Shown: piece after piece, positions 41,383-42,951 of the stretch
Layout: each line of letters starts with the position of its first letter
Position numbering within the stretch: the stretch's first letter is position 1
Sequence record: SRR22947727_1096
Strand: one strand, 5' to 3'
Length of the DNA stretch: 46,806 bases
Program-made: the position numbers and the translations under genes
Notes under the pieces: model-generated
The model's input: only the letters and a program-made list of their open reading frames with translations
Told to the model about the DNA's origin: nothing
Databases searched by the model: none

Positions 41383-41472
41383 GGAGAGGTGTCAGAGTGG
41401 TCTATCGTGCATCCTTGGAAAGGATGTGTACCTTCATCGGTACCGGGGGTTCAAATCCCCCTCTCTCCGCCA
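41383..41472 (+). tRNA. tRNA-Ser (GGA)
   Basis: Acceptor GGAGAGG/TCTCTCC, anticodon arm catcc-tt-GGA-aa-ggatg, long variable arm gtacc..ggtac, T arm ggggg-ttcaaat-ccccc, discriminator G and encoded CCA; 90 nt. Confidence 0.97.
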
Positions 41473-41837: not shown

Positions 41838-42434
41838 ATGACATTTAATCAAAAAGCACAGGATTTCATTCTTACTAATATTTTCCTTTATATTTTTGCT
41901 ATGGCTGTCTGGTCACTCTGGTCATATTTTGCTTTTGTTGGTTTAGAAAAGATGGATTGGCAGGGTAGTTTGTTATACCTTCCTCATGGCGTCAGGGTTC
42001 TATGTGTATGTTTCTTTGGGTTAAAATCTCTTCCTGCCTTAGTTGCAGCTGAGATAACAGGTCCTTTATTTATTAATCCTGAACAGTATTTTGGTGTATG
42101 GACTATTGCCAGTATTGGCTCTATTGCTTCTGTAGTTATTGCAAGGAATTTAGTTGACTGGTCTCAAGAAAATATAGTTGGATCGATAGTTAAACCAATA
42201 AACAATAATAATTATAGAAAAATTGTATTAGTAATTGTAATATCCGCATTGCTTAATGCCATATTAGCTAATTTCATAATTACCTTACTAGATACCGGCA
42301 TTCTTCTTGATCCAATAGTTATTCTTAGATTTTTTATAGGAGATTTTTTGGGTGCTTGTGTCGTAATTCTATTTCTTAGTGTTACCTTTACCAACTTAAA
42401 ATTAAACAAGTTATATAGCCCTAATAAAGATTAA
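41838..42434 (+). CDS. Integral membrane protein, MASE1-like
   Basis: About 5 TM segments, LYLPHGVRVL and F.IGD.LG motifs. Confidence 0.7.
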   Translation: MTFNQKAQDFILTNIFLYIFAMAVWSLWSYFAFVGLEKMDWQGSLLYLPHGVRVLCVCFFGLKSLPALVAAEITGPLFINPEQYFGVWTIASIGSIASVVIARNLVDWSQENIVGSIVKPINNNNYRKIVLVIVISALLNAILANFIITLLDTGILLDPIVILRFFIGDFLGACVVILFLSVTFTNLKLNKLYSPNKD

Positions 42435-42437
42435 TTC

Positions 42438-42466
42438 TTGACTACTGTATAAATATACAGTATTGT
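42438..42466 (+). promoter_or_regulatory. Sigma70 promoter with a LexA (SOS) box in the spacer
   Basis: -35 TTGACT (42438-43), 17-bp spacer, -10 TATTGT (42461-66). taCTGTataaatatACAGta (42443-62) is 19/20 to the gammaproteobacterial consensus taCTGTatatatatACAGta. Confidence 0.88.
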
Positions 42467-42473
42467 ATACATT

Positions 42474-42683
42474 ATGAATAATTTAATACATATAAACTTT
42501 AATGATAGCGTACTTACTGAGTTAAATAATGCTGTAGACATATTGTCTTCAAAAAAAACAGTAGCTTATAAATATTTTAATGGAAATATTGTTGAACTCG
42601 AAAAATATTTAAATAATGCTAATTATTATAATTCAAGCAAAATACTCGCCAATGAAGCAACTCAATTAGAGCTTTTTTCCTAA
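42474..42683 (+). CDS. LexA-regulated small protein (69 aa) with C-terminal clamp-binding-like motif QLELF
   Basis: ATG 7 nt after the -10 of the SOS promoter; ends ...EATQLELFS. Confidence 0.7.
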   Translation: MNNLIHINFNDSVLTELNNAVDILSSKKTVAYKYFNGNIVELEKYLNNANYYNSSKILANEATQLELFS

Positions 42684-42730
42684 ATTCATTCTTTAAACTT
42701 TTAATCATTCTTAAGTTGTATATAATCAAA

Positions 42731-42945
42731 GAGGGTGTCTTGTTTGTAAGTTTTTTAAGGGGGCTTGCTAACATTACTTTTTTTACCCTGAACAATGGAG
42801 GTGGTCCTATTAGTATTTATATTAAACCAGGAAACGGAGGAGCTGCCTTTTGACACAAGGTATCTTTTAAGTTTCTGACTAATTTGGGTTGCATAAACCC
42901 TAGTTAGATTTTTTCTAAACCCTCAAATTAATCTTTGGGGGTTTT
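42731..42945 (+). ncRNA. Candidate structured small RNA (or mRNA of a 37-aa peptide, 42740..42853)
   Basis: TATAAT at 42721-26; locally G-rich; stem 42733-43/42855-65; hairpin 42874-42908; terminator-like hairpin 42917-45. Confidence 0.5.
42917..42945 (+). terminator. Probable Rho-independent terminator
   Basis: aaaccctcaaa-ttaatc-tttgggggtttt. Confidence 0.65.
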
Positions 42946-42951
42946 CTATAT

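Follow-up and report, generated by a model that had tools for sequence, protein, structure and literature searches.

A conserved SAR86 microprotein gene with a LexA box in its promoter encodes a tail resembling a β-clamp-binding motif

The window, i.e., the whole stretch of 46,806 nucleotides of DNA that was analyzed, contains a σ70-type promoter-like site whose spacer is occupied by a LexA (SOS) box and, behind it, an open reading frame (ORF) of 69 codons whose product ends in QLELFS (Table 1). The first-pass annotation, made from the letters of the sequence alone, had pointed to this combination, and box, ORF and tail were all present where it had placed them. Since all three are also conserved in relatives, the arrangement is not a chance one.

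Table 1. Features at and around the microprotein locus (positions in the window)
Feature	Position	Strand	Remark
tRNA-Ser(GGA)	41383-41472	+	overlapped by the 5′ part of the MarR/TrmB-like ORF
MarR/TrmB-like ORF, 136 aa	41397-41807	+	
-35 hexamer TTGACT	42438-42443	+	similarly placed TTGAC/TTGT-type hexamer in many orthologous loci
LexA (SOS) box TACTGTATAAATATACAGTA	42443-42462		20-nt palindrome filling the spacer of TTGACT-17-TATTGT
-10 hexamer TATTGT	42461-42466	+	overlaps the end of the LexA box
69-aa ORF including stop	42474-42683	+	ATG at 42474; stop codon TAA at 42681-42683
Three-helix N-terminal domain, residues 9-48	42498-42617	+	predicted, pLDDT ~80-85
Variable linker, residues 49-63	42618-42662	+	predicted disordered; low pLDDT
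Tail QLELFS	42663-42680	+	QLELF (Gln64-Phe68, encoded by 42663-42677) matches the β-clamp-binding motif QLxLF; Ser69 at 42678-42680
-10-like TATATAA of the RNA-like element	42719-42725		
RNA-like element	42728-42948	+	~215 nt, strongly conserved; between the microprotein ORF and the EamA gene
Intrinsic terminator of the RNA-like element	~42918-42948		just ahead of the EamA gene
ATG of the EamA gene	42952		

The box departs at one of its 20 positions from the gammaproteobacterial consensus, TACTG(TA)5CAGTA. The short core CTGT-N8-ACAG was weak evidence by itself, with one match in the window against 0.36 expected and at least one match in 31 of 100 shuffles. When one mismatch at most was allowed, the extended palindrome TACTGTAT-N4-ATACAGTA was present once in the window and in none of 100 shuffles. 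In a promoter scan the TTGACT-17-TATTGT pair scored 9 out of 12; promoter-like sites taken alone were not above chance (five, against 4.0 ± 2.1 in shuffles). One such site on the opposite strand (42652-42625), which falls in the non-conserved linker, was treated as a chance occurrence.

The TATTGT found at -10 in the window represents strain variation: G001, the nearest genome (1.3 Mb; 97% identical to the window over 1.7 kb), has TATAAT in its place, and contigs from four RNA-library runs carry T>A at 42464 and G>A at 42465, giving the same hexamer. In these four runs the locus lay within contigs of 1-5 kb that spanned the whole region. The breaks of RNA-library contigs near 42430-42460, all from one study, probably reflect strain variation.

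Because the ATG lies only 7 nt past the -10 hexamer, the mRNA of the ORF is predicted to be leaderless or nearly so, a prediction made from the promoter-to-ATG geometry. No Shine-Dalgarno sequence is found ahead of the ATG. The spacing recurs in relatives: in 61 of 94 loci a -10-like hexamer lies 6-7 nt ahead of the ATG. Shine-Dalgarno-like words preceded the start in only 5 of the 94 orthologous loci, compared with 9 of the 34 long ORFs of the window. In eight loci and in the distant homologues there is no room for this arrangement, as the box directly adjoins the start codon; here the box itself more likely forms a short leader.

The pattern of change in the ORF is that of coding DNA. Between the window and one relative (L013) there were 13, 9 and 33 differences at the first, second and third codon positions, and thirteen members of 72 aa, summed over all pairs, gave 1454, 955 and 2494. 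The frame, start, length class and tail were kept across nine genera, at identities down to ~30%. Judged by these comparisons, the ORF is genuine and evolves under purifying selection. Nor is it a detached piece of dinB, imuB or umuC, a possibility that the first-pass annotation had raised: a complete umuDC sits elsewhere, as seen in G001, whose microprotein differs from that of the window by one substitution.

The statement that the protein could not be assigned to a family was borne out in Pfam, NCBIfam, PHROGs, PADLOC and the PDB. Pfam returned no family at E up to 1, and thus no match to SulA (PF03846), DinI or YebG. When all 89 aligned members were run against NCBIfam, no match was common to more than three of them, and such matches were all weak; with five members, PHROGs and PADLOC gave nothing meaningful, and neither did a profile search of the PDB with the family. 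No usable match came from the ESM Atlas.

The gene was found in 96 of 139 genomes of one SAR86 family of the GTDB (21 of 26 high-quality genomes; 9 of 10 genera), and when all 96 loci were retrieved the ORF was recovered in every one. A profile search across the order matched 108 of 266 genomes, distributed over its four families as 97/139, 0/50, 0/47 and 11/30, the last being weak matches. From this second family with matches we fetched nine distant homologues of 49-56 aa. Among 1.84 billion representative proteins there were only 60 matches at E up to 0.001, many of them chimeric or mis-started calls; all 60 were 33-118 aa long, and the idea of fused or longer forms was dropped. The 59 loci in named genome records were labeled SAR86 cluster (51), Gamma-/Proteobacteria (7) and, in one case, a Flavobacteriales MAG. 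A phage origin was rejected, viral contigs yielding no relative. The homologues that had been predicted in SAR86 thus exist and were found nowhere else, and on these searches the family is confined to SAR86, occurring in one GTDB family and, in the form of short and distant relatives, in another. The gene can also be lost: one copy has decayed, with three TGA and two TAA codons in frame (G130:C3:109474-109683), and another is shortened to 45 aa and lacks the tail (L099, G009:C8), so the gene is dispensable.

The surroundings of the gene are chromosomal and stable, with MarR-like and membrane genes upstream, and genes for an EamA transporter (48 of 59 loci) and a rhodanese (41 of 59) downstream. 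The true start of the MarR/TrmB-like gene in the window is probably an internal ATG downstream of the tRNA-Ser(GGA) that the 5′ part of its ORF overlaps.

Between the microprotein ORF and the EamA gene we also observed an RNA-like element with its own -10-like sequence and intrinsic terminator (Table 1). Its conserved blocks are TAAGGGGA, TACCCT, GGAGGTG(G/A)TC(C/T)TATTAGTATTTAT, CGGAGG and CCTTTTGACA, and one of its stems changes from TCCT/AGGA to TCTT/AGAA. The sequence GGAGGTGATC is complementary to the 3′ end of 16S rRNA. A single copy of the element per genome was found in 23 of 26 high-quality genomes of the microprotein-carrying family, and also in 8 of 10 high-quality genomes of a sister family in which the microprotein ORF is absent; the element is therefore independent of the ORF. 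Rfam assigned it to no family, the best match (32.8 bits, against a cut-off of 60) lying on the terminator. With the Rfam small SRP RNA model (RF00169), no SRP RNA was found at E up to 0.01 in any of five SAR86 genomes (G001, G070, G078, G127 and G212), and at E up to 10 the five yielded one 16-bit fragment only, although it could have escaped a first-look filter. All five contained 6S RNA, away from the place of the element. The element is a candidate for a divergent SRP RNA or for something new.

The box is conserved along with the ORF. Of 97 family copies, 94, spanning nine genera, have an exact CTGT-N8-ACAG no more than 75 nt ahead of the start codon, which bears out the co-conservation that had been proposed. 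The three misses were two loci at contig ends (L105 and L107) and one (L094) in which the box overlaps the chosen ATG. In all nine distant homologues of the second family a LexA box abuts the ATG. The distance from ACAG to ATG was 12-16 nt in 82 of the 94 loci (12-13 nt in 61) and 4 nt in eight, and the hexamer right behind ACAG was TATAAT in 36 loci and TATATT in 15. The overlap of box and promoter seen in the window, or an equivalent one, therefore also occurs in orthologues.

A host lexA, which the first-pass annotation presupposed, is present in G001 and is preceded by its own LexA box; across the order the gene was found in 221 of 266 genomes (118 of 139 in the family that carries the microprotein). 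When G001 was searched for the long palindrome with up to one mismatch, only four sites were obtained (G001:C1, positions 64702, 90201, 274624 and 627141), and they precede lexA, umuD-umuC, recA and the microprotein gene; sites with three mismatches were no commoner than those of a control pattern. The SOS regulon of G001 thus appears to be reduced to four operons, in which the microprotein gene is the only effector-like member, and we infer from the placement and conservation of the box that the gene is under LexA control in vivo.

Sister families without the microprotein gene retain the remainder of this system. They keep lexA (43 of 50 and 36 of 47 genomes) and PF00817, the Y-family polymerase domain that marks UmuC (13 of 14 and 9 of 10 high-quality genomes); over all four families PF00817 was present in 54 of 57 high-quality genomes. 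In two genomes of one sister family, boxes occurred at lexA, umuDC and recA only. In two genomes of another there was an extra box gene, a different microprotein encoded by an ORF of 62 aa with a C-terminal membrane helix, the LexA box directly abutting its ATG (L244, G194:C2, box at 371228; L240, G212:C1, box at 360021). The product of this 62-aa ORF may be a short membrane peptide made upon SOS induction that inhibits division or acts as a toxin in the manner of TisB.

AlphaFold2, run on the alignment of 89 sequences, produced a model of the 69-aa protein with a mean pLDDT of 71.5, in which helices are predicted at residues 9-19, 23-34 and 39-48. Residues 49-69 are predicted to be unstructured, and the clamp-like motif lies within this region, one residue short of the C-terminus. 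The linker cannot be aligned, and the length of homologues varies from 61 to 84 aa. Four residues are invariant in the alignment (M1, A31, F35 and Q64) and six nearly so (D11, D22, K23, F32, Y45 and E66); Q64 is invariant within a tail that is otherwise unalignable. The protein has no membrane segment. A Foldseek search of the PDB with the model returned nothing at E up to 0.001, and in a wide search with VIA-align no Z score exceeded 4.6, the best neighbors being generic three-helix DNA-binding domains that did not separate from unrelated rows.

For the analysis of the tails, 94 of 97 copies were usable, those left out being L045 (ambiguous residues), the 45-aa copy L099 and a contig-end fragment (L105). 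The most frequent tails were QLEFSF (25 copies) and QPELLH (20), followed by QLAMF (7), QLELFS, QPELI and QMEFSF (6 each), QLEFTF and QLELL (5 each), QLEFRF and QPELFSENRCS (3 each), QLEFAF and QLELPFN (2 each), and QLEFLF, QLELFY, QPELSF and QLELSF (1 each). The last 25 residues were permuted as a control; because the genomes are kin, the tail counts are not independent events. A relaxed pattern, Q-x-x-[LMFI]-(x)-[FLI], was found at the C-terminus or a few residues before it in all 94 tails, compared with a mean of 3.0 in the shuffles. The published definition of the clamp motif fitted 22 of the 94, including the QLELF of the window (shuffle mean 0.3). The other 72 fit the relaxed form only, having either Phe at position 4, as in QLEF.F and QMEFSF (42 tails), or Pro at position 2, as in QPEL.. 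(30 tails). Glu at position 3 was nearly invariant, although known motifs leave this position free. The nine distant homologues fall into three equal groups, one with a terminal QKSLF or QKDLF, one with SSI[SIN]F and one lacking both. The expectation that a terminal QLxLF would be conserved therefore held for a Gln-led hydrophobic motif, found in 94 of 94 tails, but not for the strict definition, which covered 22 of 94, nor for the distant relatives, where 3 of 9 end in Q-K-[S/D]-L-F.

In one review (PMC11139829), the clamp motif is given two forms, Q-aliphatic-x-[L/M]-[F/L] and Q-aliphatic-x-[L/M]-x-[F/L], and binding is best for QLxLF and QLxLxF; there the top clamp binder in phage display was LQLELDF, overexpression of MGPRQLDLF inhibited the growth of E. 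coli, and in MutL, whose motif is QPLLI, the Pro keeps the Gln out of the pocket (PMC11139829).

In UmuC of G001 and of 14 of 15 further SAR86 loci there was a Q-x-x-[LMF]-F motif near residue 357 (354-361), the place of the E. coli QLNLF; the fifteenth locus gave an ORF of 372 aa without the motif. Its forms were QYSLF (in G001), QHSLF, QKSLF, QNSLF, QQLLF, QYELF, QLDMF, QSDFF, QMNLF and QGDLF, and two of the distant microprotein homologues likewise end in QKSLF. Departures at positions 2 and 4 are therefore normal for the SAR86 clamp, which tolerates a range of residues at the former and Phe at the latter. The residues of the DnaN pocket, given in the same review as R152, L155, T172, H175, R176, L177, P242, V247, N320, Y323, V360, M362 and P363 (PMC11139829), were mapped by position and local sequence, with an inferred offset of one residue after 177. 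They were invariant or nearly so in 28 SAR86 DnaN sequences (30 loci, two of them dropped as truncated), and since the pocket was the same across tail classes, there was no signal of co-variation. The DnaE of G001 (1147 aa; L236, G001:C1:727900-732400) has no C-terminus resembling a clamp motif, and the simple pattern Q-x-x-[LMF]-(x)-[FL] was not found internally near the expected place. The idea that the tail mimics the C-terminus of Pol III α was dropped, because the DnaE of G001 has no such C-terminus.

The reading we prefer, and to which we give about an even chance of being correct, is that the microprotein is a LexA-repressed ligand of the β-clamp that acts as a replication brake or a polymerase-traffic factor. 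It starts from the observed box, promoter geometry, coding status, conservation of box and tail, and minimal regulon, and takes the tail to suggest clamp binding and an effect on replication. LexA on the spacer-filling box would repress the promoter; upon DNA damage the promoter would fire, yielding an mRNA with little or no leader and a small soluble protein of 69 aa, in which a flexible linker would join a three-helix domain to the clamp-binding motif at the C-terminus. The QLELF tail would then dock in the conserved hydrophobic pocket of DnaN, where the bound microprotein would be a competitor of Pol III, of UmuC (Pol V) and of the remaining proteins that use the clamp, the outcome being a damage-induced brake on replication or a redirection of polymerase traffic. 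Counting against a clamp ligand are the 72 of 94 tails that fall outside the strict motif, the Pro at position 2 and the near-fixed Glu at position 3, the distant homologues, of which only three of nine end in Q-K-[S/D]-L-F, the lack of co-variation in the DnaN pocket and the decayed and shortened copies, together with the sister families that keep lexA and PF00817 but have no microprotein gene.

The main rival is an SOS checkpoint effector aimed elsewhere, e.g., at the division machinery, in which the helical domain would be the active part and the tail would serve another target, as a protease degron that clears the protein quickly once repair is complete, or as a docking tag for a different hub. 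We consider this unlikely, yet it stays alive for two reasons: the usual SOS division inhibitor, SulA, was missing from five of five high-quality genomes of the family that carries the microprotein, and the extra LexA-box gene of the sister family also encodes a microprotein, one with a membrane helix, recalling the small SOS division inhibitors. SulA and other checkpoint proteins are cleared via C-terminal degrons, and the deviation of most tails from the strict clamp motif, with Glu nearly fixed at position 3, would also suit a different target. On the other hand, the tail in the window is an exact QLxLF, and clamp motifs are marked by just such an invariant Gln with hydrophobic positions at +3 and +4/+5; we know of no degron or division-protein motif of this form. 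The 69-aa protein, moreover, has no membrane segment and matches none of SulA, DinI and YebG. The tail also argues against a modulator of RecA, LexA or UmuD, similar in function to DinI or RecX or escorting UmuD′2C, which would time mutagenic bypass by tuning RecA filaments, LexA cleavage or UmuD processing. Small SOS-induced modulators of RecA are known, and lexA, recA and umuDC are the only genes with which the microprotein gene shares its regulon. Such a role would leave the Gln-led terminal motif unexplained, however, and there was no Pfam match to DinI or RecX. Because the microprotein is far narrower in range than PF00817, which spans all four families, the two do not co-occur tightly, and we regard a modulator as improbable.

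A small DNA-binding regulator of the helix-turn-helix type, acting on a second tier of damage genes, appears very improbable. It is suggested by the best structural neighbors of the model (MexR, FapR, ArgR-N and the DNA-binding domains of NtrC and GcrA), but these matches were weak in the VIA-align search, Foldseek found nothing at its threshold, three-helix bundles are generic, and the conserved disordered tail would have no explanation. Finally, it is barely credible that there is no functional protein at all, the box serving another transcript or the frame being open by chance in AT-rich DNA. The missing Shine-Dalgarno sequence would fit that view, but such sequences are rare anyway among the long ORFs of the window, and the conservation of frame, start, length class and tail across nine genera, with a bias of differences to the third codon position, speaks against it.

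A more specific picture can also be drawn, which we offer as a tentative proposal with the chances somewhat against it. The SOS response of SAR86 would have been reduced to lexA, recA, umuDC and a "clamp plug" induced through LexA and translated from a leaderless message, a new class of SOS effector. With its C-terminal motif seated in the DnaN pocket, it would bring the replisome to a pause and pass the clamp on to Pol V. The task of a replication checkpoint would thereby fall to a stand-alone linear-motif protein, and not to a polymerase, toxin-antitoxin pair or division inhibitor. SAR86 bacteria rank with the most abundant groups in sunlit ocean waters and have strongly reduced genomes; a gene retained there among just four LexA targets is likely to be central to surviving UV damage. 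In the literature we found no paper on the LexA regulon of SAR86 or on a small LexA-regulated clamp-binding protein, although supplementary gene lists might differ; should the tail bind the clamp, the microprotein would be the first stand-alone clamp ligand under LexA control that we could trace. It would imply that a minimal SOS response needs a brake besides repair and bypass, and would provide a simple natural case in which replication is controlled by competitors for the clamp pocket, a site now pursued as an antibiotic target.

Several known systems share parts of this design. DinI and YebG of enterobacteria are small and LexA-controlled, as the microprotein appears to be, but it lacks their Pfam match, and the fold predicted for it consists of helices followed by a disordered tail. 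The small SOS-induced checkpoint proteins, i.e., SulA and the SidA/YneA-type membrane microproteins, are likewise LexA-controlled small effectors and halt the cell cycle. Unlike them, the SAR86 protein has neither a SulA match nor a membrane helix, and its tail resembles the clamp motif rather than a ligand of division proteins. SocB of the Caulobacter SocAB pair and RipA of RipAB from Streptococcus pneumoniae are toxins that target the DnaN pocket. The likeness to SocB that had been suggested holds for the putative function only: SocB and RipA come from toxin-antitoxin pairs, whereas the microprotein gene lies behind a LexA box and has no small antitoxin-like partner ORF conserved beside it, its neighbors being the MarR-like, membrane, EamA and rhodanese genes. 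The closest resemblance in layout is to the E. coli polymerases Pol II (QLGLF), Pol IV (QLVLGL) and Pol III α (QVELEF), in which a Gln-led penta- or hexapeptide likewise ends a disordered tail. The microprotein differs from these in having 69 aa and no catalytic domain, with putative clamp binding, and most of its relatives differ from the polymerase tails by their Phe at position 4 or Pro at position 2. The QLELF of the window fits QLxLF, and the QLELSF and QLELPF of relatives fit QLxLxF.
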